NCBI GenBank assembly: GCA_963740415.1
Contig: CAVUEC010000013.1
Span: 534,726 to 598,725 of the forward strand
Direction: 5' to 3'
DNA: 64,000 bases
Source: Candidatus Eiseniibacteriota bacterium
GTDB lineage: Bacteria; Eisenbacteria; RBG-16-71-46; SZUA-252
In this document: positions 14,967 through 45,306 of the stretch, one piece after another
Layout: every line of letters starts with the position of its first letter
Numbering within the stretch: the first letter of the stretch is position 1
Translations under genes and position numbers: made by a program
Notes under the pieces: generated by a model
The model's database searches: none
What the model saw: the letters and a program-made list of their open reading frames with translations, nothing else
Told to the model about the DNA's origin: nothing

Positions 14967-15004
14967 AGGGCCGCCGGGGAAACCCGGCGGCCCTCTCCGT
15001 TTTC
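14967..15004 (+). terminator. Rho-independent terminator
   Basis: 12-bp GC stem (14967-14978 with 14983-14994) and a GAAA tetraloop, followed by ctccgttttc. Confidence 0.7.
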
Positions 15005-15150
15005 GGCGGGTCCGCCAAGGCACATTGTGTCCCCAGAGCGAGTTTCGGTCCGCCGGCCCCGCCAAGGTTGATGACCACCGCGGCCGAATGAGGCGGGCCG
15101 ATGTCTGAGCGAAGGGACACAATGTGCCTTGGCGGACCCGCCGAAAACGG
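14997..15150. repeat. Perfect 37-bp inverted repeat separated by 80 nt
   Basis: 14997-15033 (ccgttttcggcgggtccgccaaggcacattgtgtccc) is the exact reverse complement of 15114-15150. I checked this base by base. Confidence 0.9.
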
Positions 15151-15192
15151 AGCGGAGCGAAGGCCCCCTTGGCGGACCCCCCGAAAATGGCG

Positions 15193-25067: not shown

Positions 25068-26610
25068 ATGAATCCCCAAACGGTCCCCGCCCCGGCCGCC
25101 GCCGCAAGCTCGCGGGCCGGAATCCACCCCGAAGAGCTACCTCAACCTGATCGGCGGGAAGTGGATCCCCGCCCGGTCGGGCCGGACGTTCGACAACCGG
25201 AACCCCGCGCGTCCTTCCGATCTGGTCGGGACGTTCCCCGACTCGGGCCAGGAGGACGTGGACGCCGCGGTGGCCGCCGCCTCCAAGGCCTACCCCGCCT
25301 GGAAGGTGACCCCGGCGCCGCGCCGCGCCGAGTTGATCTACAGGGCCGCCGAGATCCTCCGCGCACGCAAGGAAGAGCTGGCGAGGATCATGACCCGGGA
25401 AATGGGGAAGGTCCTGGCCGAGACGCGGGGCGACGTCCAGGAGGCCATCGACATGGCCTACTACCTGGGCGGCGAGGGGCGGCGCCTTTTCGGCGTGACG
25501 GTCCCCTCCGAGCTTCCGAACAAGTTCGCCATGTCGATCCGGCAGCCGCTCGGGGTCTGCGGGCTGATCACGCCCTGGAATTTCCCGATGGCGATCCCTT
25601 CCTGGAAGATCTTCCCGGCTCTCGTGGCGGGGAACACCGTGGTGATCAAGCCGGCCACCGACACGCCTGCCTCGGCCCACCACCTGGTCGAGGTTCTGAT
25701 GGAGGCCGGCGTTCCCGAGGGCGTGCTGAACATCGTCCACGGCGGAGGCACGGCGGTGGGCGTTCCGCTCACCCTGCACCCCGACGTGAAGATGATCTCC
25801 TTCACCGGCTCCTCGGAAGTGGGGAAGACGATCGCCGAGCGGACCGCGGGCGCGCTCAAGCGGCTCTCGCTCGAGCTGGGCGGAAAGAACGCCCAGATCG
25901 TGATGGAGGACGGCGATCTCGACCTCGCGGTCGAGGGAGCGCTCTGGGGCGCGTTCGGGACCACCGGCCAGCGCTGCACCGCCACTAGCCGTCTCATCGT
26001 GATGAAGCAGGTTCACGACGAGATGGTGTCGCGGCTGGCCGAGAAGGCGTCCAAGCTCAAGCTGGGCGACGGACTCGAGCCGGGGGTGGAGGTTGGCCCC
26101 GTGGTGAACCGCGGCCAGCGGGACAAGGTCCACTCCTACGTCGAGATCGGGAAGAAGGAAGGGGCAAAGGTGGTTGCCGGCGGGAGTCCCGCCGAGGAGG
26201 GCTCGCTCCGGGAGGGGCATTTCTACAAGCCGACCATCTTCGACGGGGTGACTCCCAAGATGCGGATCGCCGTGGAGGAGATCTTTGGCCCCGTGCTCTC
26301 CGTCATCACGGTTTCGTCCTTCGAGGAGGCGATCGAGGTCCTGAACGCGACTCCTTACGGGCTCAGCTCCTCCATCTACACCCGCGACGTGAACCGCGCG
26401 ATGCGCGCGATCCGCGACATCGAGGCCGGAATCACCTACATTAATGGACCGACGATCGGCGCCGAGGTGCAGTTGCCCTTCGGCGGCGTGAAGGAGACCG
26501 GGAACGGGCACCGCGAGGGGGGCCCGACCGTCATCGACGCATTCACCGAGTGGAAGTCGGTCTACGTTGACTACAGCGGCAAGCTCCAGAAGGCCCAAAT
26601 CGATCGCTAA
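25068..26610 (+). CDS. NAD(P)-dependent aldehyde dehydrogenase. Frame broken near the 5' end (25072-25135).
   Basis: ALDH blocks include ITPWNFP, FTGSSEVG, LELGGKN and EEIFGPV. The conserved N-terminal SYLNLIGGKWIPARSGRTFDNRNP is in frame 1, which has no start codon after the stop at 25069-25071. The RBS (GGAGGAG) and ATG 25068 are in frame 3. Removing one C, for example from CCCC at 25127-25130, joins them. Confidence 0.85.
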
Positions 26611-27653
26611 GATCGCGTCGCCGCTGGCGACGGTTCTGCGCGGGGGCGAAGTCGAGTCGGTCCACCGCGGCCACGTGGCCGTGGCGGACTCGCGCGGCCG
26701 CGTCCTGGCGTGGGCCGGCGAGCCCGATCTCCACATCTTTCCCCGTTCCGCGTTCAAGCCCTTCCAGGCGCTTCCCCTCGTCGAGTCGGGCGCGTTCGCG
26801 CGCTCGGGGCTGGGCATGGACGCGCTCGCGTTGATCGCGGGTTCCCATAGCGGCACCGATCGCCACGCCGCGATCGCGCGGACGATCCTGGCCGCGGCCG
26901 GCGTGGACGAATCCGCGCTCCGCTGCGGATCGCACCCTCCCTACGACGAGGCGACCGCCGCCGCGCTCGAGGCGCGGGGCGAGGCGCCCACGCCGATCCG
27001 GCACAACTGCTCGGGCAAGCATGCGGGGATGCTCCTGATGGCGCGCTTTCTCGGCGCGCCGGTCGAGAACTACACCGATCCCGCCCACCCCGTGCAGCGG
27101 AACATCTTCGCGCGCTTCGCCGAGCTGGTCGGCGAGGAGTTCGCCGACGCCACCCCCGCCATCGACGGCTGCAGCGCGCCGACGCCGCGGATGCCGGTGC
27201 GGACGCTTGCGTTTGCGTTCGCGCTTCTGGTGGGCGGCGTGGACCGCGCTGGCCACGATCTTCCCGCGCTCGCCATGATCCGCGACGCGATGCGGGCCCA
27301 CCCGGATCTCGTCGCTGGCGAAGGGCGGCTGGACACACTCTTGATGAAGGCGGTGCCGGGTCTCGTGACGAAGGCGGGCGCCGAAGGGGTGCACGCCACG
27401 GGAGACCCGAAGCGCGGGATCGGGATCGCGGTGAAGATCGAGGACGGATCCCGGCGCGCGCTGGGGCCCGCGGTGACCGTCCACGCTCGAAGCGCTCGGC
27501 GTCATCGGCGAGGCGGAGCGGAAGGCGTTGGCCAAGCACGCGGGCGAGCGGATCCGGAACGCTGCGGGGATCGACGTAGGCGAAATATGCGGGGTTGCCC
27601 TTATCGAAGGCTTGGACGCGAGTGGACGCCTGAAGACGGGGGGCCAGGGATGA
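26567..27653 (+). CDS. Asparaginase-II family protein. Frame broken at about 27477-27486. Start uncertain.
   Basis: VESVHRGHVAV, FPRSAFKPFQALP, GSHSG, HNCSGKHAGML, DGCSAP and KAGAEG. The C-terminus TLEALGVIGEAERKALAKHAGERIRNAAGIDVGEI...GQG-stop is read in frame 3 and ends at TGA 27651-27653. In the raw sequence the ORF runs on into ppdK as a 1321-aa fusion. Confidence 0.75.
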
Positions 27654-30532
27654 GCGCGTCCAAGACCGACGTCGTTCCGGCGCCCGGCTCGGCCGCGAAC
27701 CCGACGATCGAACGGGTGCAGCACGTCTACTTCTTCGGGGACGGCCGCGCCGAGGGGAGCGCGCGGATGCGCGACCTGCTAGGCGGGAAGGGAGCGGGAC
27801 TCGCGGAGATGACCAACGCGGGGGTCCCGGTCCCTCCCGGCTACACGATCACGACCGCCGCCTGCCGGCAGTTCTTTGAAGCGGGTGGCCGCCTCCTCGA
27901 CTCGATCCTCCACGAAGAAGACCAGGCACTGAAACGACTGGAGCGCTACCTGGGCCGCCGTCTCGGCGACCCCGAGAATCCGCTTCTCGTTTCGGTCCGC
28001 TCGGGCGCGCCGCTCTCGATGCCCGGAATGATGGACACGGTCCTCAATCTCGGCCTGAACGATCGAACGGTGGAGGGACTTCGAGAGCGGAGCCAAAGCC
28101 CCCGCTTCGCCTACGACAGCTACCGCCGCTTCATCCAGATGTACTCCGACGTCGTGCTCGGAATTCCCCGCGCGCGCTTCGAGGCCGAGATCAAGCGGAC
28201 CAAGGCGCGGGCGCGTGTCGAGCTGGACGTGGATTTGAAGCCCGAGCACCTGCGCGGGCTGGTCGAGAAGTTCAAGGCGATCGTTCGTCGCGAGATCGGC
28301 GTCGAGTTCCCACAGGATTCGCGGGCGCAGCTCGCGGGCGCGCGGGACGCCGTGTTCCGCTCGTGGAACGGCGAGCGCGCGGTCCACTACCGCCGCATCC
28401 ACGGAATCGGCGATGAGGTGGGCACCGCGGTCACCGTGCAGGCGATGGTCTTCGGAAACCTGGGCTCCACCTCGGCGACCGGGGTCGGGTTCACGCGCGA
28501 CCCCGGGAGCGGCGAGCCGCGCTTCTACGGCGAGTACCTGCTCAACGCGCAGGGCGAGGACGTGGTCGCGGGGATCCGCACGCCCCGGCCGATCGAGGAG
28601 ATGGAGCGCGAGCTTCCCGAGGCCTTCGCCCAGCTCCGCGAGATCACGTCGCGCCTCGAGCGTCACTACCGCGACGTCCAGGATTTCGAGTTCACGATCG
28701 AAGAGGGCCGGCTTTTCATGCTCCAGACCCGGCGCGCGGCGCGCACCGGGATCGCCGCGCTTCGGATCGCCGTGGAAATGGTGGAGGAGGGGCTGATCGC
28801 GAAGCGCGAGGCGATCGAGCGCGTGGAGCCGGACCACCTGGATCAGGTGCTCCACCCGGTGCTCGATCCCGCCGCGCGCCGGAAGCACGACAAGGTGGCG
28901 ACCGGCCTCCCGGCATCGCCGGGCGCGGCGGCGGGCGCGATCGTGTTCACCTCGGAGGAGGCCGCGAAGCGGGGCGCGAAGGAGCGGGTGATCCTGGTCC
29001 GAGCGGAAACGTCTCCCGACGACATCGCGGGGATGCACGCGGCCCAGGGAATTCTGACCGCGACCGGCGGCATGACCTCGCACGCCGCGGTGGTCGCGCG
29101 GGGCATGGGGAAGTGCTGCGTGGTCGGTTGCTCGGCGCTTCAGATCAGCGAGAGCGCGAAGACCCTGCGCATCGGAACGCGAACGCTCCGCGAGGGCGCG
29201 TTCCTCTCGCTCGACGGGTCGAAGGGCGAGGTCCTGCTCGGCGACGTTCCCACGTCGGATTCCGAGGTGGTCCGCGTGCTCACGGGCCGCCTGAAACCCG
29301 CGCAGTCTCCGCTCTATCAGTGCTTCGAGCGCCTGATGGCGTGGTGCGACGAGGAGCGAAGGCTTCGGGTGCGGGCGAACGCCGACATCCCGCGCGACGC
29401 CAAGATCGCGAGGCAGCTGGGCGCCGAGGGGATCGGCCTCTGCCGCACGGAGCACATGTTCTTCGCCGCCGACCGGATTCCGCACGTCGTGACAATGATC
29501 CTGAACGCGCAGCAGGCGAGAGAGGCCGCGCTCCGGATCGCGCGGCTTCAGGCGGAGCTGGCCGACGCGCCCCGCTCGGAGCGGCCGCGGGTGAAGAAGG
29601 AGCTGGAGCACGAGCGCCGCGAGGGGCGCGAGCCGATCGCCGCCTTCCACGGGGCGCTCGCCAAGCTGCTCCCGCTTCAGCGCGCGGACTTCAAGGGCCT
29701 CTTCCTTGCGATGGAGGGATGCCCGGTCACGATCCGCACCCTGGACCCGCCGCTCCACGAGTTCTTGCCCAAACGGGAACAGCTGGAGAAGGAGATGGCC
29801 GCGCTGGGCCGCGCCCGGAAGGGCGACCCCAGGCGCCGCCGCCTGGAACAAACGCTCGCGCGCGTGGAAGAGCTCCACGAGTTCAATCCCATGCTCGGCT
29901 TCCGCGGCTGCCGGCTCGGGATCCTCCACCCCGAGATCACGCGGATGCAGGCGCGCGCCATCTTCGAGGCGGCCGCCCAGGTGATGAAGGCGGGGAAACG
30001 CGTGGTGCCCGAAATCATGATCCCTCTGGTCGGCGACCCCGAGGAATTGAAACGGCAGCGGGCCGTCGTGGAGGAGGTGGCCGCGGAGGTCATGCGGCGG
30101 ACGAAGGTGACGATCCCGCATACGATCGGGACGATGATCGAAGTCCCGCGCGCGGCGATCCTGGCCGACGAGATCGCGGCGCACGCGGATTTCTTCTCCT
30201 TCGGCACCAACGACCTCACCCAGATGACCTTCGGCTACTCGCGCGACGACTCCGGGCGGTTCCTGCCCGAGTACGTGGACGCGGGAATCCTAAAGCAGGA
30301 TCCGTTCGTGTCGATCGACGTGCGCGGGGTGGGCACGCTCTTGCAGCGGGCCGCGTTTGCCGGCCGGCGCGCCAAGCCGGGCTTGAAGATCGGCATCTGC
30401 GGCGAGCACGGAGGCGACCCGGCCTCGATCGCGTTCTTCGAGACGGTGGGCCTGGACTACGTTTCCTGCAGCCCGTTCCGGATCCCGCTGGCCCGCCTCG
30501 CCGCCGCCCGCGCGGCGCTCCGGCGGGCGTGA
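27650..30532 (+). CDS. ppdK: Pyruvate, phosphate dikinase
   Basis: VYFFGDG...LLGGKGAGLAEM, the phosphohistidine loop TATGGMTSHAAVVARGMG, and GLCRTEHMFF, FFSFGTNDLTQ and SCSPFR. ATG 27650 overlaps the frame-corrected asparaginase stop (ATGA). Confidence 0.9.
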   Translation: MSASKTDVVPAPGSAANPTIERVQHVYFFGDGRAEGSARMRDLLGGKGAGLAEMTNAGVPVPPGYTITTAACRQFFEAGGRLLDSILHEEDQALKRLERYLGRRLGDPENPLLVSVRSGAPLSMPGMMDTVLNLGLNDRTVEGLRERSQSPRFAYDSYRRFIQMYSDVVLGIPRARFEAEIKRTKARARVELDVDLKPEHLRGLVEKFKAIVRREIGVEFPQDSRAQLAGARDAVFRSWNGERAVHYRRIHGIGDEVGTAVTVQAMVFGNLGSTSATGVGFTRDPGSGEPRFYGEYLLNAQGEDVVAGIRTPRPIEEMERELPEAFAQLREITSRLERHYRDVQDFEFTIEEGRLFMLQTRRAARTGIAALRIAVEMVEEGLIAKREAIERVEPDHLDQVLHPVLDPAARRKHDKVATGLPASPGAAAGAIVFTSEEAAKRGAKERVILVRAETSPDDIAGMHAAQGILTATGGMTSHAAVVARGMGKCCVVGCSALQISESAKTLRIGTRTLREGAFLSLDGSKGEVLLGDVPTSDSEVVRVLTGRLKPAQSPLYQCFERLMAWCDEERRLRVRANADIPRDAKIARQLGAEGIGLCRTEHMFFAADRIPHVVTMILNAQQAREAALRIARLQAELADAPRSERPRVKKELEHERREGREPIAAFHGALAKLLPLQRADFKGLFLAMEGCPVTIRTLDPPLHEFLPKREQLEKEMAALGRARKGDPRRRRLEQTLARVEELHEFNPMLGFRGCRLGILHPEITRMQARAIFEAAAQVMKAGKRVVPEIMIPLVGDPEELKRQRAVVEEVAAEVMRRTKVTIPHTIGTMIEVPRAAILADEIAAHADFFSFGTNDLTQMTFGYSRDDSGRFLPEYVDAGILKQDPFVSIDVRGVGTLLQRAAFAGRRAKPGLKIGICGEHGGDPASIAFFETVGLDYVSCSPFRIPLARLAAARAALRRA

Positions 30533-32773: not shown

Positions 32774-32827
32774 GGTTCGGCGGCGGTCAGGGTTTCGGCG
32801 GCGGCCAAGGTTTCGGCGGCGCTCTAA
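32774..32827. repeat. Three tandem ~18-nt repeats with core GGTTTCGGCGGCG
   Basis: GGTTCGGCGGCGGTCAG, GGTTTCGGCGGCGGCCAA and GGTTTCGGCGGCGCTCTAA, followed by GGGTTTCCC. They lie in the 320-nt gap upstream of the giant surface-protein gene. Confidence 0.8.
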
Positions 32828-33075
32828 GGGTTTCCCCCGTAGCGGCGCCAATCCGCACGGGACATTGCAATTTGCACGGCCCTCCCCGGCCCGGCTAGCG
32901 ATCCCTCGAACCCCTTTTCGCTCAAGGCCTTCCAAGCCTCCCAATTTCAGCGCGTTGCCCACCCGTGGCGTGACGGTCCGTGGGCGCCCCGTGGCATGTC
33001 TCTTGCGCTCCGCCGGGCGGGTAAGTCCCTGGGGCACAACGGAACACACTCCCACCACGGAGCCAAAACTCGGCG

Positions 33076-36000
33076 ATGCGGTACCAATCCCGCCTCGGGT
33101 CAGCGCCCGCGCGCGCGCTCGTACGCGCCGCGCTTCTCGCGTTCGTTGCGTTTCTCGCGCTCGCGACGCCGGCGACCGCCGCGCCTGGGAGCGGCTCCGC
33201 GACGATCTCACCCGGTCCTTCCGTGGTCGCGGGCGCGGCCGGCACGTGGACGCTGGAATACGTCGCCGCCGAAGACTTCAACGGCGCGCTAGGCGGCGTG
33301 GTTGCGTTCGACTTCCCGGCCGGCTGGACGCCGCCGCAGATCGGTGATGCCGGCGCGGCAGGGTACGTCCAGGTCACGAGCCCGGCCTCGGTCGACAGCG
33401 TGTGGGTTTCGGGCCAGACCCTCGAGGTTCACGTCGGCGCGCCGTCCGGCGCCGCGTTCTTGACCGGCGATACGATCCGCGTCGTGTACGGCTCCGGCGG
33501 CGGCGCAGCCGCCGCGGTCGCCGGCACCGTGGCTCCCGCGACCGCGACGTTCCCGGTCTCGAGCGATCCCACCGACACGCTCGGCTTGGCACCGCTCAAT
33601 GCTCCGCCCTCGCTCACGGTCATCCCGGACGTGGTCACGCACGTCCGGGTGGTCGGTCCCTCGATGGCTCCGATCGGCTCGTTCGCGCGGAGCGCCGACG
33701 AGGACACGACCCAGTTGAAGCTGCGCGGCTACGACCGCTTCGACAATCCGGTCCGCATGATCGCCGGCCACTGGAGCGTGATCGGAGGCATTGGAACGGT
33801 TTCGCCGGCCACCGGCATCGGGACCGTGCTCACGCTCACCGCGGCCGCGACCGGCTACGCCGTCGGGGACAGCGGCGCGTGGGCCGACTCGACCGGGACG
33901 ATCACGGTGACCCACGGCGCCTACTCGCGCCTCGTCCTGAACGCGGACGTGATCGCGACCGCGGGGACCCCATTCGGCGCCAACGCCGCCGCGCTCGACC
34001 TGGACGGCAACGCGATCACCTCGGGACCGGGCTCGGGAGGCGCGCTCACGTTCGTGGGGTACGCGGACTCGACCGGATTGGCGCCGGCGGACCCCGATCT
34101 CGTCAGCGCCGGGTTCACGCTGACGTCGGGATCCTGGAACGCCACGCGCACCGCCCGCCGTTCGGGCACGTTCTGGCTCGCGGTCCGGGATTCCGCGACC
34201 GGCTTTGAATCGTCACCGCGCCGCCAGATCGACGTGGCGGCGGCGGCCGCCGATCACATCTCCGCGCGGCCCGACACGCTCGCCCTGACCGCCGGCGTTC
34301 CCGCCACGCTCACGGTCCTGGTTTTCGACGCGCTCGGAAACCGCGCGCCGACCACCTCGAGCGAGCTGCTCACTCTCTGGACCGACCGGCCCGCGGGCCG
34401 CTTCATCGATTCGTTCGGCTCGATCATCCACGAGGCGATCCTCTCGGTGGGCGCCGACTCGGTGAACCTGCGCTACGCCGACAATCAGGCGGGCGCCGGC
34501 GTCGGACGTCTCCGGGTCATCGACGGGGACGGCGCCGGATCGTCCCTGGGAACCGCGTCGGCGTACTCGGTCACGTCGCCGGGGCCGCCCACCGGGCTCG
34601 TCTCGCTCTCCGCGTCGCCGGACACCCTCATGGCCGACGGCGTCGACTCGTCGTTCGTCGCCTCGGGGCTCGTCACCGACGCGTACGGAAATCCGATTCC
34701 GGCCGGACTCCACTTCACCGCCACGTCCTCGCTCGTGACGCCGTTCGGCGACGTGGATCCGGGAACGCCGGGAGTTCAGTGGGCGACCGTCCCCGGCGGC
34801 ACGGTGAGCGGCTGGGTGCGCGCGGGCACGACGATGGGCGCGGGCGCGGTCTCCGTTCAGCTCGGAGCGGCCAACGGCTCGATCGGAATCCAGCTGGTTG
34901 CGGGCGTGCCGTCGGGCGCGATCGCGGTGACCGCCTCTCCCGATTCTCTCGCCGCGGACAGCGTGTCCACGCGGACCGTGACCGCGTCGGGACTTCACGA
35001 CGCGAACGGAAACCAGGTGGTCGACGGCGAGCCGTACACGGTCACGACCACGCTCGGCTCGATCGCATCGGCCGACCAGGATGCCGTGACGCCCGGGATC
35101 CAGCGCCGCGCGTCCGGCGGCTCGATTTCCTTCTCGCTCTTCGGCGGCGACGTGCTCGGGACCGCGACCGTCGGCGTGACGTCGGTGCGCGGGAGCGCGT
35201 CGGGGAACACCAACGTGCGGCTCGTGCCGGGCGGCGTGAGCGCGTCCGCCTCGTCGGTGGCCGCGACCACTCCGGCGCCGGTGGGGCCCGTGGGCAGCAC
35301 GATCACCGTGACGCTCCGCGACAGCCAGGGGCACGCCATCGCGGGCGTCCCGGCCGATTCGATTCCGATCGTGGTGCTCGGCGTGGCGGCGATGGTGACC
35401 CCGCTCGGCGCGTTCACCGACGCGGGCGGCGCGATCGACTTCCGCGCGACGGCGACGGTGGCGGGCACGGGGATCGTCTCGGCCACGGCGAAGGCAATCC
35501 CGCTCGGCAGCGCGCCGACGATCGTCTTCGCGCCGGGCTCGCTCGACCACTTCGTGCTCTCGGGACCGGGCGGCCCGCTTACGGCCGGCGTTCCCGGACT
35601 CGCTCTCGCTTTTCGCGCGTGACGCCTTCAACAACGCGATGCCCGCGTTCTCGGGGCTCGTGCTGCGCCCGGTGGTGCTCGCGGGCGGTGCCACGGCGCC
35701 CGATTCGGTCTTCCTGTCCGGCGGATCCGTGACCGTGGTCTTCACGCCGACCCTGGCCGCCCCGCTGACGATCCAGGTCCACGACGACGCGTCGCACTCC
35801 GTCACGCTCGGCCCGGTCGCGGTCGCGGCCGGCGCTCCATACCGCCTGATCGCGCTCGCGCCCCCGTCGAGCACGCTCGCCGCGGGGGACTCGATGGCGG
35901 TCCAGGCACGCCTCTTCGACGTCCACGGCAACGTCGTGCCGTCCGGCGTCGTGGGGGCCTCGGTCGTGGCCGGGAGCGGCTCGGTGTCGCCGGCGGCCGA

Positions 36001-39000
36001 CCCGACCGACCCCGGCGGCCTCGCCGATTTCACGCTCCACGCGGGATCGGCGCCGGGGCCGCTCGTCCTGCGAATGGTCGCGGCGGCGAGCGCCGCGCCC
36101 GACTCGATTCGCGCCGATTCGATCTTCGTCACGGTGAGCCCGGCCGCGACGGCGTCGCTCCAGCTCATCGCGGATTCGCTGAACTGGACCGCGGGCGTGG
36201 CGGTGCGGGTGCGCGTGCGGCCGCTCGACGCGTTCGGGAATCTGGTGACGGCCGACACCGCGACGATCGTCATGCGCCCCGCGGGCGCTGCTCGCTGGAC
36301 GCCGCCTTTCGGGGCGCTGTCCGCCGGCGAGTTCGTCACGTTCGCGACGGATACGCTCGCCGAGTCCGTCTCGCTCGCCGCCGACCGCGTGGGCGGCGGG
36401 ACGGGGAGCACGGGCCCCGCGGTCGTGTCGCCCGCGGCGCCGGCCCAGCTCGCGATCGTCTCGGGCGACGCGCAGAGCGCGGTCGTGAACCACAATCTCC
36501 CGGCCCCGCTCCTGGTTCGCGCGAGGGACGCGTACGGAAACCCGGCGCCGGGCGCGTCGGTCGTGTTCACGGTCGCGGCGGGGAACGGCTCGGTGGACGC
36601 GGTGGCGGGCGGCGCCGCCGACTCGATCGCCGTGGCCGACGGGTCCGGCTTCGCGGTCTGCGATATCGCGCGCCTGGGCACCGTCGCGGGCCCGGGGAGC
36701 GACTTCTTCCGCGCCCGCCTCCTCCTCGCGCCGCTGGCCCAGGTCCTGTTCACGGCCACGGCGACCCCGGATGTGGCCGCGTCGATCGCGGTGCTTCCGC
36801 CGTCGTTGTCGCTCGCCGCCGGCGCCACCGCGAACGTCACCGCGCAGGCGCGGGACGCCTACGGAAACCTGGCCCCCGGAACTCCGGTCACGTTCTTCCT
36901 CGGCGCGCCGGCGCTCGGGACGCTCGAGTCCACGGGCTCGACCTCGGGAGGCAGCGGCTCCCAGTCGGGCACGACCGGCGGCGTGGGCACGCTCATGGTC
37001 CGCTACCGCGCGCCGTCCTCGGCGCCCGCGGCGGACTCGATCTACGCCCGCGGCGTCACGATCGTGCCGGTCGGAATCCGCGCCACGGTGGGCGCGGCCG
37101 CGTCCGCGGCGCTTCAGATCCTTCCCGACTCTCTCTCCTGGATCGCGGGCTCGCCGGTGCGCGTGCGCGTGCGCGCGGTCGACTCGTACGGGAATCTGGT
37201 GGTGGGCGACACGGCGACCGTCGTGATGCGGCCGAGCGGTGCTGCATCGTGGGCGCCGCCGTTCGGCCCGATGACGGCCGGGGAATTCATCACGTTCGCC
37301 ACCGACACGGTGGCCGAGGCGCTCGCCTCGCTCGATGCCGACCGGGTGGGAGGCGGCACGGGGAGCGCGGGACCGGTGACGGTCCGGCCGGCGGCGCCCT
37401 CGGGATTGATCGCGATCGCGGCGCCGCGCGACACCCTGACCGCCGACGGGAAGAGCTCGGTCACGGTCACGCTGGGCCCCGTGCGGGACGCGTACGGAAA
37501 TCTCGTCCCGGCGGGATCGCTCGTCCTGGCCAGCGCGACGTCCGCGTCGCTCTTGGCGCCGGACGCCTCGCCGCTTCCCGGGCTCGATCTCGCCACCGCG
37601 GCCGACGGGCGGGCGTCGCTCATCCTGACCGCTCCCTCGGTCGCCGGTCTCGACACCCTTCGCGCATCGAGCCGCGTGGGAAGCGCGTCGGGGCTCCGCC
37701 CGTTCGCGTACCTGGCGCCGCCCACGGTTGTCTACGCCGGCGGATCGATCGCGCCGGTCGTGGTGGTGTCGGGCGCGTCCTACGCCTTCAAGGCCGGCGT
37801 CACCAACACGGGGAGCGGCGTGCTCCAGATCGGCGCGGGCACGACCCTTTCGTTCGGCTCGGGCGCGGGCGCGTACAGCGCGACGCTCGCCTCGCCGCTC
37901 GCGCTGGGATCCGGCTTGAGCGACACGCTCCGGTTCGCGAGCGTGGTGGTGTCGCCGAGCCTCACGCCGGGAAGCTACGCGCCGTCGCTCCGCGCGGTCG
38001 GGACCGACGGCACGGGCGACCCCTTTGACTTCTATCTCAACCTGGCGGGCGCGCAGACCCACGTCGCCGGCGTGAGCGTGGCCGCTGTGAGCGCGTCGCC
38101 CTCGCCGGTGCCGCTGGGCCACCCGGATCTCAGCCTCACCTTCGACGTCACGAACCGCACGTCGCTGCCCGCCACGATCGACGCGGCGAGCCTCGCGTAC
38201 TCGACCGGAGCCTTCGTCACGAACAGCGTGACGCCGCCGCTGCCCGCGGCGCTCGCCGCTTCCGGAACCACGCGGCTCACCGTCTCCGTGCGCGTGCCGT
38301 CGGGCGGCATCCCGTCGGGCACCGTGGTGAACGCGAGCCTGACCGCGACCGCGACGTTCCTGGGCTCCGTGGTCGCGGGCGTGAACCCGACGCCGCTCTC
38401 CTTCCAGGTGATCTCGGCGGCTCAGTTCGCGGCCAAGCCGGGCGGCGCGCTGCCCATCCGCTATCTCCGCGCCCGCACGTTTGGACCGACGGTCCGCGTG
38501 GCGAACCTCGGCGGCAGCGCGGTCACGCTCGCGAAGGGCGCGACGCGGCTGGTGCTCACGCATCCGGGTGGCGACGTGCTCTCGACCGGGCTTTCGGCGG
38601 CGACCGCGGTCGCGGGCGGCGACTCGGCGACCCTCGCGTTCGACTCGCTCGCCGTGGGCGCCGCGGTCGCTCGCGGGCGTTACGGCGCCCGGCTTGAGCT
38701 GAGCGGGACGGAGGCCGGGCTCGCGTTCGCGGACACGATCCCCCTAGATCCCGACAGCGTCTCGGTGCTCGAGCCGCCGCTGCTCGCGGTGACGGCGCCG
38801 TTGCTACCCGACACGGTGAGCGCGGGGCAGACGCGCCCCGTGCGCGTGAGGCTCTCGAACTCGGGCGACATCGCGTTCAACCTCGACGCGGCGACCACGC
38901 TCCGTCTCGGCGCGCCGCTCTCGACCGATCTCACGCTGGGCTCGGCGCCCGCGCTCAACCCCGGCGCGTCGCTCGATCTCGACTTCTCGGGCGGACCGCT

Positions 39001-40249
39001 CGGCTCGGCGCTCGCGCCGGGAACGGGACCAGTCACGCTCGACGTGCAGGGGACGGAGGACGGCCGCGCGCGGGCGCAGGCGGTTCCCGCGGGCGCGCTC
39101 GTGGCCCAGCCGCCCGCGGCGCTTGCGTTCGTCGCGGGCTCGGTCACGCCCGACACCGTGCGCGCGGGGCAGTCGTACGCGCTGACGGCCGCGGTGCGGA
39201 ACAACGGCGGGTCGACGTTCCTCCTCGATCCCGCGTCCACGCGTCTCGTCGTGACGGACGGCGTGGAGCAGGCGGTCGCGACGGCGGCGGGCGCGCCGTT
39301 CGCGCTCGGCCCGGGCGCGCAGGCGACCCTCTCCTTCCCGGCCGTGGCGTTCCCGGCCGCGCTGGCGAGCCAGCCCTATCCCGTATCGCTCGACGTTCAT
39401 GGAACGGAGTGGGCGCTCGCGGAGAGCGTCTCGGTCGTCTCGCCGCCGGCGGAGCTTCTCGTGATCGAGCCCGCGGCCGGCGTCCAGATTCGCGCGATCG
39501 ACGCGGGCGCTCCGGTCCAAGTCTCGTCGGGCCAGGTCGTGCGGGCGTGGGCCCTCGAAGTGACCCCGGTCCTGCCGCCGGGCGGCGTCACATCGGCCCA
39601 CCTGACCACGCTTCGCCTCACCGTGCTCATCGACGGCGGCGCGGGCGCGCCCTCGACCGCGCTCGCGGCGGTCTCGCTGCGGAGCGCGTCGGGAACGCTC
39701 CTCGCCCAGTCGGCGGCGGGCGGCACCAACCCCGTGACGCTCGCGCTCACGTCTCCGCTCTCGCTCACCGCCGCCTCGGAGTCGGTCTACGTGGACGTCG
39801 CGGTCTCGGGCGCGGCCGCCGCGCGCGACGTCGCGCTCCGTCTGGCCGTTGCCGGCGATCTCGTGGTTCTGGACGACCTGGCGGGCACGCCGGTCCCGGT
39901 TGTGGGCGGCGGCGGTCTCGCGTTCGCGCCCCTCACGTCCTCCACGCTCACGCTCTTTGCCAAGGCGCACGGTTACCCGAACCCGTTCCACGCGGGTCGC
40001 GAGGCGGTGCTGCTCTCCTATCTCCTGCCGCAAGACGCCGCGGTCAAGGTCTCGATCTACACCCTGCTCGGCGACCTCGTGCGCGAGATCCCCCTCCAGG
40101 CGGGCGCCACGGGCGGGACGCGTGGCTTGAACGAAGTGCCGTGGGACGGCCGGAACGGAAAGGGAGACCTGGTGCGGCCCGGTCTCTACGTCGCGCGGAT
40201 CGAAGGGCCGGGAGCCGCCGAGCAGATCAAGGTGGGGGTGACGCGATGA
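33076..40249 (+). CDS. Giant (~2390 aa) secreted Ig-like (Big_1-type) / CARDB-like repeat surface protein with a FlgD-Ig-like C-terminal domain. Frame broken at 35593-35597.
   Basis: Signal peptide ALLAFVAFLALATPATA. Big_1-like modules appear, for example SASPDTLMADGVDSSFVASGLVTDAYGNPIPAG. CARDB-like modules fill the second half (PDTVSAGQTRPVRVRLSNSGDIAF, PDTVRAGQSYALTAAVRNNGGSTF). The C-terminus reads YPNPFHAGREAVLLSY...VSIYTLLGDLVREI...WDGRNGKGDLVRPGLYVARI. Track ORFs 33076..35622 and 35639..40249 are one gene. Frame 2 is open from 35597 and reads DSLSLFARDAFNNAMPAF. Removing one base from CCCGG joins LTAGVP to it. Confidence 0.85.
36150..36430 (+). repeat. Internal repeat unit A within the giant gene
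   Basis: Encodes LQLIADSLNWTAGVAVRVRVRPLDAFGNLVTADTATIVMRPAGAARWTPPFGALSAGEFVTFATDTLAE...DRVGGGTGSTGP. It is clearly paralogous to 37100-37390. Confidence 0.75.
37100..37390 (+). repeat. Internal repeat unit B within the giant gene
   Basis: Encodes LQILPDSLSWIAGSPVRVRVRAVDSYGNLVVGDTATVVMRPSGAASWAPPFGPMTAGEFITFATDTVAE...DRVGGGTGSAGP. Confidence 0.75.
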
Positions 40250-42116
40250 CCGCGCTCCGGGCGTGGCTCGTCGCGATGGCCATCGTCGCGCTGGCGACGG
40301 CTTCGCGGACGCACAGGACGCCGGCACGGCCACGCTGCTTGCGTCGCCGGGGAGCTGGCCGACGACGGGCGCGATCTCGTCCTCGACCGCGCTCGCACTG
40401 GACCCCTCGGCGATCTACCTGAACCCCGCGGGGCTTGCGACCCAGGACGAGCGGACCTTCCTGTTTCACCACGGCCTGCTCCAGTTCGACACGAGCTGGG
40501 ACATGGCCGCGATCGCTTATCCGATCCCCGGGCTCGGAGCGGCCGGGCTCGGCGTGGCGCGCATCGGCTCCTCGGGCATCGACGCGTACGACGCGTCCAA
40601 CCAGCCGATCGGGACGATCGGCTACAGCGAGACCTCGCTTGCGGCGAGCGTCGCGCGGCACCTCTACGGCCCTCTCGTGGCCGGCGTGACGTTCAAGGTG
40701 CTCAGCCAGTCGCTCGGCGACATGTCGGCCGCGGCGCCGTCGATCGATCTTGGATTTGCTTACAGACCCGCCAAGCTCCTCGGCGGGCAGATCGGGTTCG
40801 CGGCCGAGAACGTGGTGGCGGGCTCGCTGGATCTGGGAGGGCCGACCGAATCGCTCGACCGGACGTTCCGCCTCGGTCTCGCGTCTCCCGAGTGGCGTTT
40901 CGGGCAGCTCATGGCCGCCCGCGGCATCGTCGACCTCGAGCGCGCCGGCGCCGAGGGGACGAAGAGCCGCTTCGGCCTGGAGGTGAACCGGTTTGGAATC
41001 GGAGCGGTGCGCGCGGGGCTGGACCGCGGCCGCGCGATCCTGGGATTCGGCGTCCAGTGGCGCCGCTACGGCTTCGACTATGCGTTTGCCCAGGGCGAAA
41101 TCGAGGCGACCCAGCAGATCGCGCTTCATCTCGCCTGGGGCGAGCCGGTGAGCCAGTACGAGTCCCGCCGCCGGGCCGAGTTCGCCAAGGCGGCCGAGGA
41201 CACGGTTCGCGCCCATAGGGCCGCGATCGTCGCGCGCGATCGCGAGAAGGCGGAGGAAGCCGAGGCCAAGGGCGACTACGAAGCGGCGCTCCTGCTCTGG
41301 GAGATCCTGATCCGCGAGCGGCCGGACGACGCGACGTTCGCCGCCCGGGCCGAGCGCGCTCGAACCGAAATCGCGGATCGCGCGGAGCAGGACCTGGAGG
41401 TTGAGAGCGCGAGGCGCCTCGCCTCCACGGTGACGGCCATGACCCGCGCCGCGCTGAACCGCGGCGACGTGGAAGAGGCGGCCGGAGTCTGGCGCGGGTT
41501 CGTGCGGCCGGGCGTGACGCCGCCTGGGTTCGTCGCCGACAGCGTTGCCGCGATCGAAGCCGAGTACCGCGCGGCGCGCGACCGCGCGGTCGCACAATCG
41601 GTCGCGCGCGCGGATTCGCTCCACCGCGTCGGGCGCGTGCTCGACGCCGCCGAGGCTGCCGCGTTCGCGCTCCGCCTGAATCCCGAGGATCCGGCCGCGC
41701 TCAAGGCGTGGAACTCGCTCCAGCTCATCGTCGTGAAGAGCGCCGAGACGTCGGCGTCGCTCACGCGGAAGCTGGAGGCTCTGACCGCGATCCACACGGC
41801 GTCCGGCGCCTTCACCGAGGGTCGCTACGCCGACGCGCAGACGTCGATTCGCCGCGCGCTCGCGCTCGAGCCGTCGAACGCGGAGGCGCGCGCCTGGCGC
41901 GACCGGATCGAGCGCCGGCTGGCCACCCCGAAGACCGAAATCGACGCCCGCGTGAAGCAGCTCTACATCAAGGGCATGGAGGCCTTCTCGAGCGGGGACT
42001 ACCGCGAGGCCCTCCGGAACTGGGAGCAGATTCTCGTGCTCGACCCGCTGAACGAGAGCGCGCGGCGGAACGTGCTCGAGGCTCGCGAGCGGATGAAGGC
42101 GGAGGCGAGTCGATGA
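40246..42116 (+). CDS. Putative outer-membrane beta-barrel protein with a C-terminal TPR-like domain. Frame broken at about 40290-40305.
   Basis: ATG 40246 overlaps the giant gene's stop (ATGA) and encodes the signal peptide MTALRAWLVAMAIVALA in frame 1. The mature protein (FADAQDAGTATLLASPG...DPSAIYLNPAGLA..., alternating barrel-like pattern) is in frame 3. One missing base, for example in the GG at 40299-40300, joins them. The C-terminal half has TPR-like repeats (GDYEAALLLWEILIRERPDD, GDYREALRNWEQILVLDPLNESARRN). The PorV/UPF0164-like assignment rests on pattern only. Confidence 0.6.
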
Positions 42117-44590
42117 AGCTGAGCGGCCGGTCCATGACGCCCCGTCGCTTCCACCTCCGCGTGCCCGCGGAGGAGGTCCGGCTCGCCGAGATCCGCGACT
42201 TCGTCCAGGAAGTCGGCGAGAAGCTGATGATTCCTCAGAAGGTGCTCGCCAACACCAAGCTCGCGGTGGACGAGGCGTGCACCAACGTCATCAAGCACGG
42301 CTACAAGGGCGAGGCCGGACAGATCGAGATCGTGGTGACCGGGAACGGCCGCGACTTCTCGATCGCGATCAAGGACTTCGGGAAGAGCTTCGACCTCCGG
42401 AACGTCGCGAGCCCCGATCTCAAGATGTACGTCGAGACGAGGAAGCGCGGCGGGCTGGGCGTCTTCCTGATGAACCAGCTGATGGACGAGGTGCGCTACC
42501 GGGCCGGCCACGACGGGAACGTCCTCACCATGTCGAAGCACCTGAACCGGCGCCGGCGTCCGCGGAAGGGCAATGAGCGCCGCCGGACCCTCCGCTTCGC
42601 GTACACGGTCCAGGCGTTCGGCGTGCTCACCATCCTGGTCGCGATCGCGTTCGGCGCGATCCACCTCCGCCAGCGCCGGGACATAGAGCGCGAGGTGCTC
42701 GGCCAGGCCAGGGACGCCGCGACCAACCTCGCGGACGCCGGGCTGGAGGTGGTGACGCGCCGGGAGCCGATGTCGCCCGAGCAGACGCGGCTCAACCAGT
42801 CGATCCGGGTCCTCCTCAGGGCTCACCCGGAATTTGCCGGCGCGCGGGTGCTGGACGCCACGGGCCGCGTCTGGGCCTCCAACATGTTCGAAGAACTCTT
42901 CACCTCCCGCACGCTTCCCCCGGGTGCGCGGGCCGTTTCCCCCGGAACCGGCTCCACCGGAAAGCCCGGACCGCCGGTCACCGTCGTGGAGCCGTCCAAC
43001 GGGAAGTCCCGGGAGGTCACGTTTCCCATCGTCGAATCCAGCTCGGGCGCCGCGCACGCCCTCGGCTGGGTGCAGATCGTGGTTCGCGAGTCGGCGATCA
43101 CCGACCGAATCGTCGCGTCGGGGATCGAGCTTGCGACGATCGCGCTCATCACCCTCCTGCTGGGCTGCGTGCTCTCGACGATTCTCATCGCCGTATTCGT
43201 CCAGCCGATCCAGGCGCTTTCGGACAGCGTGCGCGCGATCGGCGAGGGGACCATGGTCGCCGAGATCGGCGCCTCGGGGAACGACCAGATCGACGACATC
43301 GCGCGGGCGTTCAACGAGGTCACGGCGAAGTTCCGCGCGGCCCAGGGACACCTGATCGAGCAGGAGCGTCTCCAGCAGGAAATGCAGGTGGCGCAGGAGA
43401 TCCAGCAGATGCTCCTTCCGCGCCAGGTGCCCGAGCTGGAGGGCTTCGAGCTCGGCTCGCTCTACCGCGCGGCCAAGGAGGTGGGCGGCGATTACTACGA
43501 CTTCCTGCCGGTCGACGACCGCACCGTGGGCGTCGTGGTCGCGGACGTCTCGGGCAAGGGCGTCCCCGGCTCCCTGGTCATGACGATGATCCGGACCGCG
43601 CTCCGCATGGAGGCCCGCGGCAACCGGTCGGCGTCCGACGTGATGTCCAAGATGAACGCGTTCGTGACCGAGGACATGAAGAAGGGAATGTTCGTCACGA
43701 TGTTCTACGTCGTCCTCGACTCGGTGAACCGCGTGGTGAGCTACGCCAGCGCGGGGCACAACCCGATGATTCTCTACCGCGGCGAATCGGATGAGACCTA
43801 CTTTCTGAAGCCCAAGGGAATCCCGGTCGGGATCAACGTGCCCGACGAAGAGCTCTTCCGGAAGACGATCAGCGTCGAGAAGCTGACGCTCCGCCGGGAC
43901 GACATGCTTGTCATCTACACGGACGGGATCACCGAGGCGATGAACCCGGATCGGGATCAGTTCGGCGAGGGGCGGCTCCTGGCCGCGATCCGGCGCTACG
44001 GACACATGACCGCCCAGGAATTCGCGGACGCGCTAAATGGAGAAATCCAGGAGTTCACCGGGGGAGCGCCGCAGAACGACGACATCACGCTGGTCGCGAT
44101 CAAGGAGCGGGTCCCGGTGGAACAGCACCTCGAGGCGAACCGCCGCGAGCTCTTCCGGCTGATCGAGCAGGAGGGTGTCCCGATCGCCGAGGCCTGCGAC
44201 CGGCTCAAGATCACCGCGGGTACCTACTACCGGTACAAGCGCCGGGTGGAGTCCATGGGCGGCGAGGAGGGACTCAAGCCGTCGCGGCCTCAGGGGCCGA
44301 TGGCTAGGGCCAGCCTCGAGGTGGAGGCGGCCATCTTGGAAATCGTGAAGGCCGAGCCCACTCTGGGGGCGAAGCGAATTCTAGAATTGCTCAAGGGCGC
44401 AAATCGTTGCCCCGCTGAGCTTTCCGAAAGGGCCATTTACGAGACCCTGCGCCGGAACAAGCTCAACACTAGGGAAAAAAGGCTCGAGTTCAGCCAAAAC
44501 GGGACCGATAAACGGATGGCGAGGCTCGCCCGGGCATTGTCGGAAGCTGCCCCGTCCCACCCGAACGAGCAGCAAGGAGGCGAAGCATGA
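42113..44590 (+). CDS. Membrane multidomain signalling protein: RsbW-type anti-sigma kinase domain, 2 TM helices with an extracytoplasmic loop, HAMP, PP2C/SpoIIE phosphatase, and a C-terminal transposase-type HTH region
   Basis: ATG 42113 overlaps the upstream stop (ATGA). The N-terminus LAVDEACTNVIKHGY...GGLGVFLMNQLMDEV is an HATPase_c_2-like (RsbW/SpoIIAB) pattern. TM helices are near AFGVLTILVAIAFGAI and LATIALITLLLGCVLSTILIAVFV. A HAMP-like PIQALSDSVRAIGEG...IDDIARAFN follows. The SpoIIE/PP2C blocks are GGDYYDF, VVVADVSGKGVPGS, AGHNP, YTDGITEA and DDITLV. The tail contains GVPIAEACDRLKITAGTYYRYKRR and ILEIVKAEPTLGAKRILELL...IYETLRRNKL. Confidence 0.8.
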   Translation: MKLSGRSMTPRRFHLRVPAEEVRLAEIRDFVQEVGEKLMIPQKVLANTKLAVDEACTNVIKHGYKGEAGQIEIVVTGNGRDFSIAIKDFGKSFDLRNVASPDLKMYVETRKRGGLGVFLMNQLMDEVRYRAGHDGNVLTMSKHLNRRRRPRKGNERRRTLRFAYTVQAFGVLTILVAIAFGAIHLRQRRDIEREVLGQARDAATNLADAGLEVVTRREPMSPEQTRLNQSIRVLLRAHPEFAGARVLDATGRVWASNMFEELFTSRTLPPGARAVSPGTGSTGKPGPPVTVVEPSNGKSREVTFPIVESSSGAAHALGWVQIVVRESAITDRIVASGIELATIALITLLLGCVLSTILIAVFVQPIQALSDSVRAIGEGTMVAEIGASGNDQIDDIARAFNEVTAKFRAAQGHLIEQERLQQEMQVAQEIQQMLLPRQVPELEGFELGSLYRAAKEVGGDYYDFLPVDDRTVGVVVADVSGKGVPGSLVMTMIRTALRMEARGNRSASDVMSKMNAFVTEDMKKGMFVTMFYVVLDSVNRVVSYASAGHNPMILYRGESDETYFLKPKGIPVGINVPDEELFRKTISVEKLTLRRDDMLVIYTDGITEAMNPDRDQFGEGRLLAAIRRYGHMTAQEFADALNGEIQEFTGGAPQNDDITLVAIKERVPVEQHLEANRRELFRLIEQEGVPIAEACDRLKITAGTYYRYKRRVESMGGEEGLKPSRPQGPMARASLEVEAAILEIVKAEPTLGAKRILELLKGANRCPAELSERAIYETLRRNKLNTREKRLEFSQNGTDKRMARLARALSEAAPSHPNEQQGGEA

Positions 44591-45240
44591 AGGGAATCGA
44601 CGTTTACGTCGAGGAAGCGGTTCAGAACCGAGGGGTCTCGGTCCTGCGGGTTTCGGGCTACGTGGACACCACGACCAGCCCCGATCTCGAGCGCAGGCTC
44701 CAGGCCCTCCTCCGGGAAAAGCGCTATCACATCGTGGTCGACCTCTCCGGGGTCGAATACATCTCGAGCGCCGGCTGGGGGATCTTCATTTCCGAGATTC
44801 GAGAGATCCGCGAGCAAGGCGGCGACCTGAAGCTGGCGGGGATGATCGCCGATGTTCGCGAGGTCTTCGATCTCCTCGAATTCGAAAACATCTTGAAGGC
44901 CTACGCCGACACCGAAATGGCGGTCGGGTCCTTCGGCGCGGTCCCGTCGTCCCCGTCTTCCTCGTCCACGGGCGGTGCGACCGACGGCCACAATTCCTCC
45001 TCGCAGTCGTCGGCGGGTCACCGCTCGGAGACGGTTCTGTCGGACGAGGACCTGATTCGCGAGATCGCGCGCCAGCATCCGGAGTTCGGGCTCATGCGGA
45101 TCCAGAAAGAGCTGAGGAAGCCCGAGCGCGGCGGCCGCGATCTGAATCCGGTCCAGATTTACGTGCTCTTGCGGAAGCTGGACCTGGACACCCGCGAGCG
45201 CCGCGCGGCCCTCGCCAAAGAGAGCCAGCCGAGCAAGTAA
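44587..45240 (+). CDS. STAS-domain anti-sigma-factor antagonist (RsbV/SpoIIAA-like) with a Ser-rich linker and a C-terminal HTH-like module
   Basis: ATG 44587 overlaps the upstream stop (ATGA). The STAS pattern is VLRVSGYVDTTTSPDLE...HIVVDLSGVEYISSAGWGIFI...GGDLKLAGM..VREVFDLLEF. The C-terminus LIREIARQHPEFGLMRIQKELRK....IYVLLRKLDLDTRERR aligns with the tail of the preceding protein. Confidence 0.8.
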   Translation: MKGIDVYVEEAVQNRGVSVLRVSGYVDTTTSPDLERRLQALLREKRYHIVVDLSGVEYISSAGWGIFISEIREIREQGGDLKLAGMIADVREVFDLLEFENILKAYADTEMAVGSFGAVPSSPSSSSTGGATDGHNSSSQSSAGHRSETVLSDEDLIREIARQHPEFGLMRIQKELRKPERGGRDLNPVQIYVLLRKLDLDTRERRAALAKESQPSK

Positions 45241-45262
45241 CTCGACATTGAAACCGCTTGAC

Positions 45263-45306
45263 CGCGGGGGGTCGCGTGCCTATCGTCAGGTGCACGGCCC
45301 CCCGCG
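45263..45306 (+). terminator. GC hairpin after the operon. It may be a terminator and overlaps a candidate promoter.
   Basis: CGCGGGGGG (45263-45271) pairs with CCCCCCGCG (45298-45306), and an inner CGTGC pairs with GCACG. There is no clear U-tract. The same region contains TTGACC (45258-45263), a 17-nt spacer, then TATCGT (45281-45286). Confidence 0.35.

Follow-up and report, generated by a model that had tools for sequence, protein, structure and literature searches.

A partner-switching locus of Candidatus Eisenbacteria with homologous transposase-type helix-turn-helix modules on its kinase-phosphatase fusion and its STAS protein

Many partner-switching systems outside the Firmicutes lack a sigma factor, and little is known of what they control. 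Here we describe such a locus in a 64,000-nucleotide stretch of Candidatus Eiseniibacteriota DNA (contig CAVUEC010000013.1, positions 534,726 to 598,725; the whole stretch is called the window), where the gene for a kinase-phosphatase fusion protein (42113-44590, 825 aa) is followed by the gene for an antagonist-type STAS protein (44587-45240, 217 aa), and both proteins end in a helix-turn-helix (HTH) module of transposase type. Coordinates are those of the window, and the features of this locus lie on its + strand.

The nearest described system is CapK/CapS, in which CapS, a repressor made of a STAS domain and a winged HTH (wHTH), is controlled by CapK, an anti-sigma-type kinase (Chambers et al., EMBO J 2026, PMC13373217). 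Phosphorylation of the STAS serine breaks the CapS dimer and releases the DNA; the phosphomimetic S54E variant, altered at the serine that CapK phosphorylates, is monomeric and its DNA binding is abolished (PMC13373217). CapK also contains an HTH, the deletion of which had no phenotype (PMC13373217). The locus described here resembles CapK/CapS in the pairing of an anti-sigma-type GHKL serine kinase with a STAS protein that has a C-terminal HTH-type domain, in the presence of an HTH on the kinase as well, in the lack of a sigma factor and in the adjacency of the two genes. The STAS serine governs the output in CapS and, by analogy, may do so here. The two systems differ in several respects. 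The wHTH of CapS is ArsR/MarR-like and directly follows the STAS domain, whereas here an all-helical HTH_21/HTH_32 module is found past a disordered linker of 30 residues. CapK is a soluble HTH-STAS-GHKL protein that takes single-stranded DNA as its activator and has no phosphatase, whereas the fusion is a membrane protein with the order GHKL-transmembrane (TM)-Cache-TM-HAMP-PP2C-HTH. The capKS genes are located upstream of immune operons, while the genes described here accompany genes for surface and envelope proteins. Finally, no mutual homology has been reported for the HTHs of CapK and CapS, whereas the tails of the two proteins studied here are homologous.

A second related system is that of SypE, a kinase-REC-PP2C protein of Vibrio fischeri, which controls SypA, a STAS protein that is itself the downstream output (PMC10120452). 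SypE and the fusion both have an N-terminal RsbW-like serine kinase, a central input and a C-terminal PP2C in one chain, but the input is REC in SypE and TM-Cache-TM-HAMP in the fusion, and neither SypE nor SypA, a single-domain STAS protein, contains an HTH. The classical RsbU/RsbV/RsbW-SigB and SpoIIE/SpoIIAA/SpoIIAB-SigF switches have the same three catalytic and substrate domains, the same STAS fold and the same serine position. In contrast to them, kinase and phosphatase are fused here, no sigma gene is found nearby and an HTH has been added to both partners. The transposases of the insertion sequence (IS) families IS481 and IS3 share with these proteins a homologous two-part HTH (28-35% identity), the same Pfam families and a paired-like two-part fold; the proteins of this locus differ from them in lacking an rve/DDE core, in being non-mobile (single-copy and syntenic) and in the fusion of the HTH to signalling domains.

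A literature search found no description of this architecture, CapK/CapS being the nearest, and a search of the PDB with the sequence of the STAS protein returned classical STAS proteins only, with no CapS-like entry. The first-pass annotation of the window had regarded the architecture as undescribed; this holds for the HTH type and the arrangement of domains, but the principle of a STAS-wHTH protein with an HTH-bearing kinase was published in 2026 (PMC13373217). What sets the locus apart from CapK/CapS is the transposase-derived type of the HTH, its duplication on both partners, the fused phosphatase, the transmembrane sensor and the genomic context. Both proteins seem to contain the output domain themselves, so that the DNA or the partner bound by the tails becomes a testable question. 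With thousands of members in metagenomes, from at least two phyla, the family is large, and it appears to be a bacterial example of a transposase DNA-binding domain that was recruited into signal transduction and then duplicated onto a partner protein.

Domain architecture and homology of the two tails

The open reading frame and Pfam domains of the fusion give the order RsbW-type serine kinase, TM segment, Cache-like region, TM segment, HAMP, PP2C, two-part HTH and a short C-terminal helix. The kinase is a HATPase_c_2 domain of the anti-sigma-factor type (aa 17-142, 42161-42538; PF13581, 104.6 bits, profile positions 1-127 of 127), and the kinase motifs EACTNVIKHGY and GGLGVF are legible in the sequence. 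Two hydrophobic 19-mers (aa 165-183 and 345-363) enclose a weak, sub-threshold Pfam match to sCache_3_2 (21.5 bits). HAMP is found between the second TM segment and the phosphatase, and no match to Response_reg (REC) was detected by Pfam in the fusion. The SpoIIE/PP2C serine phosphatase covers aa 468-664 (43514-44104; PF07228, 169.9 bits, profile positions 1-190 of 192).

The tail of the fusion begins with a first HTH (aa 674-726, 44132-44290), which matches HTH_23 and HTH_28 above the curated Pfam cut-offs and for which AlphaFold2 (AF2) predicts helices at tail residues 2-17, 22-29 and 33-46, with a predicted local distance difference test score (pLDDT) of ~80. The second HTH, here called module 2 (aa 733-791, 44309-44485), is HTH_32-like, with predicted helices at tail residues 66-78, 84-93, 103-112 and 118-126; it scores 103.5 bits with the module-2 hidden Markov model (HMM), and BLASTP and hhalign identify it as the homologue of the STAS tail. 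The post-module segment (44498-44587) consists of a conserved amphipathic helix (TDKRMARLARALS; tail residues 131-142 in the AF2 model) and a variable acidic and glycine-containing end, and in the alignment of homologues its residues D130, R132, A134, R135, L136, A139 and L140 are near-invariant. As a whole, the tail was modelled by AF2 (pLDDT 76) as a pair of helical sub-domains, with a low-confidence linker between them, and the C-terminal helix; the reading frame ends 34 aa past the module.

The STAS protein starts with a STAS domain (aa 1-118, 44587-44940; Pfam match at aa 10-110, 71 bits), for which Foldseek retrieved the SpoIIAA structure 1TH8_B with a target-normalised TM-score (TMt) of 0.90 and an E value of 1e-9; compared with SpoIIAA and RsbV in structures taken from complexes with their kinases, the model gave TMt values of 0.87-0.90. 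Serines S60 and S61, invariant in 36 homologues, are located at the N-terminus of helix 2, the predicted helix beginning at residue 61. A Ser/Gly-rich low-complexity linker follows (aa 119-149, 44941-45033), which varies between homologues and is predicted to be disordered (AF2 pLDDT 25-38), the disordered stretch of the AF2 model being aa 123-149. The STAS tail (aa 150-210, 45034-45216) is a single HTH_21/HTH_32-like module, as seen with Pfam, BLASTP, shuffled sequences, hhalign and AF2. In the AF2 model of the STAS protein (pLDDT 78) the tail is all-helical, without a wing, and its four helices (153-163, 169-177, 188-197 and 202-212) have a pLDDT of ~80; the reading frame ends 10 aa past the module. 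Both tails are basic, with isoelectric points of 9.4 and 9.7 compared with 4.7 for the STAS domain. Judged from sequence, every part of a partner switch is present and intact except the sigma factor.

The first-pass annotation had aligned the two tails by eye, and the peptides it compared are exact (fusion aa 739-790, from nucleotide 44327; STAS protein aa 154-206, from nucleotide 45046), as is the upstream HTH that it placed in the fusion (aa 688-711, from nucleotide 44174). The likeness was significant in every comparison made. BLASTP gave a gapless alignment with 21 of 56 residues identical (38%, E 3e-7); the Smith-Waterman score was 76, compared with 25.1 +/- 4.7 for shuffled sequences, the best of which scored 63, so that none of the 20,000 reached 76; and hhalign of the family profiles of both tails gave a probability of 96.5% with an E value of 8.5e-10 over 65 columns. 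The homologous helical modules span ~58 residues in each protein, and by these alignments the fusion contains a complete two-part HTH and the STAS protein its second half only. That no DDE/rve catalytic core follows either tail, as had been stated, was borne out by Pfam for both proteins, and a search of the six-frame translation of the window with the module HMM found no copy beyond these two, each lying inside its host gene.

The assignment of the tails to the HTH type found N-terminal to IS481/IS3 integrase cores agrees with the plasmid search and with the Pfam families HTH_23, HTH_28 and HTH_32. When the 156-aa fusion tail was compared by tblastn with 72,556 plasmids, it matched almost only the N-termini of annotated IS481- and IS3-family transposases, with 28-35% identity over 100-138 aa, including both HTH halves, and E values of 2e-4 to 8e-3. 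Among the Pfam families proposed in the first-pass annotation, HTH_23 (30-34 bits, cut-off 24.6) and HTH_28 (26.5-29 bits, cut-off 25) both pass on the fusion tail, but HTH_32 (aa 704-779, 27-32 bits) falls just short of its cut-off of 33.7 there and is sub-threshold on both tails, as are all matches of the STAS tail. Some close homologues carry precomputed matches to PF13276 (STAS proteins) or PF13565 (fusion tails). The best PDB neighbours of the fusion tail in Foldseek were the paired domains of Pax5 and Pax6 on DNA, followed by Mos1, TnsB and MuA, at weak E values (0.02-1) and with a root-mean-square deviation that is inflated because the inter-domain linker is flexible. The Pax paired domains, Mos1, TnsB and MuA are two-part HTH DNA binders. 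Taken on homology, the fusion bears the whole N-terminal DNA-binding region of an IS481/IS3-like transposase.

Most of the nearest relatives of the module by sequence are not transposases: only two of 70 non-signalling relatives contain an integrase core (rve); 22 are GT2 glycosyltransferases, named as Patescibacteria, and 10 are GspC-like. The Patescibacteria GT2 proteins (P0171, P0175, P0180 and ~19 more) have two complete HTH_23/28+HTH_32 modules at their N-terminus and no transposase core. A set of GspC/PulC-like proteins (P0163, P0165, P0202, P0209 and P0216), with T2SSC and in several cases also PDZ, have 3-4 tandem copies of module 2 alone at the N-terminus, and one of this set is named 'PulC/transposase' by the JGI pipeline. 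These architectures show repeated recruitment of this class of module, frequently to proteins associated with membranes. The same pipeline calls fusion-tail and PP2C-HTH fragments 'transposase', and such labels would inflate IS counts in these phyla; this label and that of 'anti-sigma B factor antagonist' for the STAS protein are both misleading.

Conservation, selection and distribution

In 34 GTDB species representatives of Candidatus Eisenbacteria the genes are single-copy and syntenic, in the order TPR protein, fusion with tail, STAS protein with tail, 719-aa membrane protein and LTD/FlgD_ig protein, and the position and reading frame of the tail are identical in all of them. A search with the STAS-plus-tail protein gave 1207 matches at E <= 0.001, the best 120 of which are 74-98% identical with full-length coverage; in these, the STAS domain and the tail are near-invariant and the linker is variable. 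Against six related loci, the STAS domain had a ratio of nonsynonymous to synonymous substitution rates (dN/dS) of 0.04-0.10, compared with 0.03-0.14 in the tail (at dS values of ~0.6-1.4) and 0.27-1.4 in the linker. Purifying selection therefore acts on the tail as strongly as on the STAS domain, whereas the linker can vary freely. Locus L002 gave no tail value, its tail being frameshifted. In this complete-chromosome metagenome-assembled genome (MAG) a frameshift (L002, 4465-5169) splits the STAS domain and the tail into different frames, which is probably an assembly error and not a pseudogene. The description of the tails as a domesticated transposase module is supported by the lack of a core, the fixed position, the single copy and the purifying selection, but the direction and timing of domestication are presumed, most of the nearest relatives of the module being other proteins than transposases.

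The profile of the tail was compared with 1.84 billion representative proteins and gave 561 matches at E <= 0.001, 104 of them at E <= 1e-10. Of the best 150, some 45 are proteins of other lineages with the order kinase-Cache-HAMP-PP2C-HTH, among them one Calditrichia protein, TPR-extended versions and single-chain versions. Six such relatives keep the order giant protein, TPR protein and fusion; the STAS gene follows in five and is absent in L045. The Calditrichota locus L041 encodes a 239-aa STAS protein with a tail, and a search with this protein gave 2011 matches at E <= 1e-10, with the module present in 111 of the top 120; one match, derived from a MAG, carries as its label the name of a described species, Caldithrix abyssi. 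The STAS tail is also found in L043 and L044, although in L043 it was seen by eye only and is below the module-2 HMM threshold. L043 (5895-8898) has a gene for a ParA/BcsQ-type ATPase between the fusion gene and the STAS-tail gene, and a gene for a GGDEF protein after them.

Other arrangements of the same domains were found. In the single-chain variants P0152, P0167 and P0158 the HTH is followed by three STAS domains within one chain of 1,250-1,511 aa, and the kinase was found in P0152 and P0167 and not in P0158. In the TPR-ended variants (P0154 of L039 and P0256 of L044) an acidic linker and TPR repeats come after the HTH. Between lineages, identity is 19-41% for the STAS tails and 26-60% for the fusion modules. 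The comparison of these sequences presents the HTH of the fusion as the constant feature and the STAS tail as an old but dispensable, faster-evolving addition.

In hhalign the Calditrichota tail matched the Eisenbacterial STAS tail at E 3.4e-11 (probability 97.2%) and the fusion tail at E 1.3e-8; being slightly nearer to the former, it points to an old duplication of the module onto the STAS partner. The Calditrichia STAS tail is 46% identical to the module of its own fusion, versus 30% to the Eisenbacterial STAS tail, a likeness between partners that could be read as recent duplication or concerted evolution, but it vanished once three more lineages had been added. A wider distribution, read from a few loci labelled Omnitrophota, Binatia, Hyphomicrobiales, Bacteroidota and others, which have 54-62% identity and full synteny, was discarded, these labels probably being binning errors.

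Possible outputs of the switch

We favour a reading of the locus, with a probability of about 0.4, as a chromosomal partner switch without a sigma factor, common to Candidatus Eisenbacteria and Calditrichota, the output of which would be exerted directly on DNA. Because CapK/CapS and SypE/SypA provide precedents, the following mechanism is proposed. The Cache-like periplasmic sensor of the fusion would set the phosphorylation state of Ser60/61 in the STAS protein. This state would decide whether the STAS-HTH protein is held on the membrane kinase domain or freed, or would alter its oligomeric state, and in either way whether its HTH occupies DNA. The output would be transcriptional and direct, as in CapK/CapS, and not mediated by a sigma factor. 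The two-part HTH of the fusion could act as a regulator tethered to the membrane and bind related sites in DNA, or could bring the sensor to the same loci; genes nearby that encode giant surface proteins and envelope proteins would be likely targets. The suggestion in the first-pass annotation that the tail serves as the output of the switch, in place of a sigma factor, is in line with the Pfam scan of the large open reading frames of the window, which contained no Sigma70-family sigma factor, but its DNA-binding part is taken from homology. No sigma factor was found in the conserved neighbourhoods of 40 related loci either.

Several points weigh against a direct DNA output. All of its mechanistic steps (DNA binding, phosphorylation and interaction) rest on homology. 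It is unusual for a polytopic membrane protein to have a DNA-binding domain, and the tail of the STAS protein is one small HTH sub-domain only, with Pfam scores below the cut-offs (HTH_21, 22.5-24.7 bits, cut-off 28.1; HTH_32, 16-18 bits). To the weak structural matches of the fusion tail is added a tail-profile search of PDB sequences with one chance-level match only (E 1.6). The long inverted repeat that follows the STAS gene, described below, is missing from about half of the loci, so that no conserved operator is established. The STAS proteins of L040 (128 aa) and L042 (121 aa) have no tail, while the fusions of these loci retain the HTH, and in the single-chain relatives a covalent link ties the STAS domains to the membrane protein, so that a free STAS-HTH protein is not universal. 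The nearest relatives of the module are also found on membrane-associated proteins (GT2 and GspC-like), which would fit a role other than DNA binding equally well.

A possible but unlikely alternative is that the tails are protein-protein docking modules, the STAS tail pairing with module 2 and so keeping the substrate near the kinase and phosphatase, or passing it to another module-bearing partner. The same type of module is indeed present on both partners, the long flexible linker would permit tethering, and the module family appears repeatedly on membrane-associated machines (GT2, GspC/PDZ proteins with their 3-4 tandem copies, and TPR proteins); moreover, deletion of the CapK HTH left signalling unchanged, so that the HTH of a kinase need not be an output. 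However, the docking surface, which had been offered in the first-pass annotation as the other role of the tails, is weakened because two lineages pair an HTH-bearing fusion with a bare STAS protein, namely those with the 128- and 121-aa proteins. The HTH is likewise kept in the single-chain variants, between PP2C and the three STAS domains, where no docking is needed. Furthermore, the STAS tails diverge faster (19-41% identity) than the fusion modules (26-60%), with no consistent signal for the own partner.

It is also conceivable, though quite improbable in our view, that the IS481/IS3-type module is a portable adaptor for membrane machines in several phyla and that in Eisenbacteria and Calditrichota the switch is an exchange of the STAS tail, controlled by phosphorylation, between the module of the sensor and either DNA or another module-bearing protein. 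If true, the exchanged partners of the switch would be copies of a single domain derived from a transposase, and an envelope signal would be coupled directly to the expression or secretion of the adjacent giant surface proteins.

More doubtful still is the idea that the module is a general adaptor that binds a shared third component, which could be the nucleoid, serving as a cue for position, a ligand of nucleotide or polymer nature, or a partner in an envelope machine. The very diverse architectures of the 561 representatives, with an integrase core in only two of the 70 non-signalling ones, could be explained in this way, as could the tandem arrays of module 2 alone ahead of T2SSC and PDZ, and the giant Big_1/FlgD_ig surface proteins and TPR protein (one orthologue of which has a weak PorV match) that the switch always adjoins. 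Yet such a ligand or partner is purely putative, a common partner is unlikely given that the GT2 relatives belong to Patescibacteria, which are unrelated organisms, and the homology of the module indicates sequence-specific DNA binding.

The last explanation, that the tails are functionless, decaying IS481/IS3 remnants inserted at the 3' ends of both genes, draws on the similarity to the N-termini of these transposases and on the name 'transposase' given to several fragments by the JGI pipeline, but it is practically ruled out by synteny and selection, the domain being a recruited one because it lacks a DDE core, is single-copy with no additional copies in the window, is fixed in the same position and frame in 34 species and in a second phylum, has a tail dN/dS of 0.03-0.14 and folds confidently in AF2 prediction.

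Genomic setting and candidate DNA sites

The window is chromosomal, high-GC DNA (~68%) with housekeeping genes, including those for tRNA synthetases and pyruvate phosphate dikinase, and homologues are named Candidatus Eisenbacteria. A close-packed run of + strand genes from ~33025 to 45240 encodes two giant Ig-like surface proteins, the TPR protein, the fusion and, at its end, the STAS protein; the second giant surface protein has a putative FlgD_ig-like sequence at its C-terminus. The TPR protein (40263-42116, 617 aa) has C-terminal TPR repeats matched by Pfam, and its stop codon overlaps the start of the fusion gene (ATGA). Both junctions flanking the fusion gene are ATGA overlaps, and AAGGAGG is located 7 nt upstream of the STAS start codon; these overlaps and the strong predicted ribosome-binding site indicate that the fusion and STAS proteins are co-translated.

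The TPR gene is found directly 5' of the fusion gene in every Eisenbacteria locus long enough to show it, and an upstream TPR gene was also seen in L039, L040, L043, L044 and L045; the gene upstream of the fusion in L042 encodes 677 aa and has no Pfam match on record. In L045 the TPR orthologue matches PorV weakly. Giant (2,000-3,400 aa) Big_1/CARDB/FlgD_ig surface proteins always precede the switch in loci L039-L045 and in the window (33025-42116), as does a TPR protein of ~620-680 aa. The giant surface proteins and the weak PorV match are a hint, at the level of domain content, that the switch could control a cargo of the type IX secretion system (T9SS-like) or an adhesin.

Just past the STAS stop codon and before the next gene, at 45381, is a promoter-like sequence of sigma-70 type, TTGACC-N17-TATCGT (45258-45286), straddled by a 19-nt inverted repeat (45263-45281 / 45288-45306). 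The promoter-like pattern (TTGACC-N17-TAnCGT) recurs in this position in at least 28 of 32 Eisenbacteria sequences. In some loci a distinct terminator hairpin is located upstream. The segment 45258-45306 may be a candidate promoter and operator for the gene of the 719-aa membrane protein, a terminator, or both, and any connection with the HTH modules would be speculative.

Upstream of the first giant surface-protein gene (33025), at 32776-32829, an 18-bp direct repeat (TTCGGCGGCGGTCAGGGT-like) occurs three times in tandem. The operon of which the STAS gene is the last member likely starts here, which makes this a candidate regulatory site. A further intergenic region, between two large + strand genes at 14992-15190, contains a 42-nt inverted repeat with 98% complementarity (14992-15033 / 15114-15155) and additional copies of the CCTTGGCGGACCCGCCGAAAACGG motif; it is among the repeat sets named in the first-pass annotation. 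Elsewhere in the window, a single stop-free frame of 1,346 codons (26492-30532) encodes Asparaginase_II (aa 47-329) and a complete pyruvate phosphate dikinase, and represents two genes sharing that frame or, alternatively, a fusion of an unusual kind.

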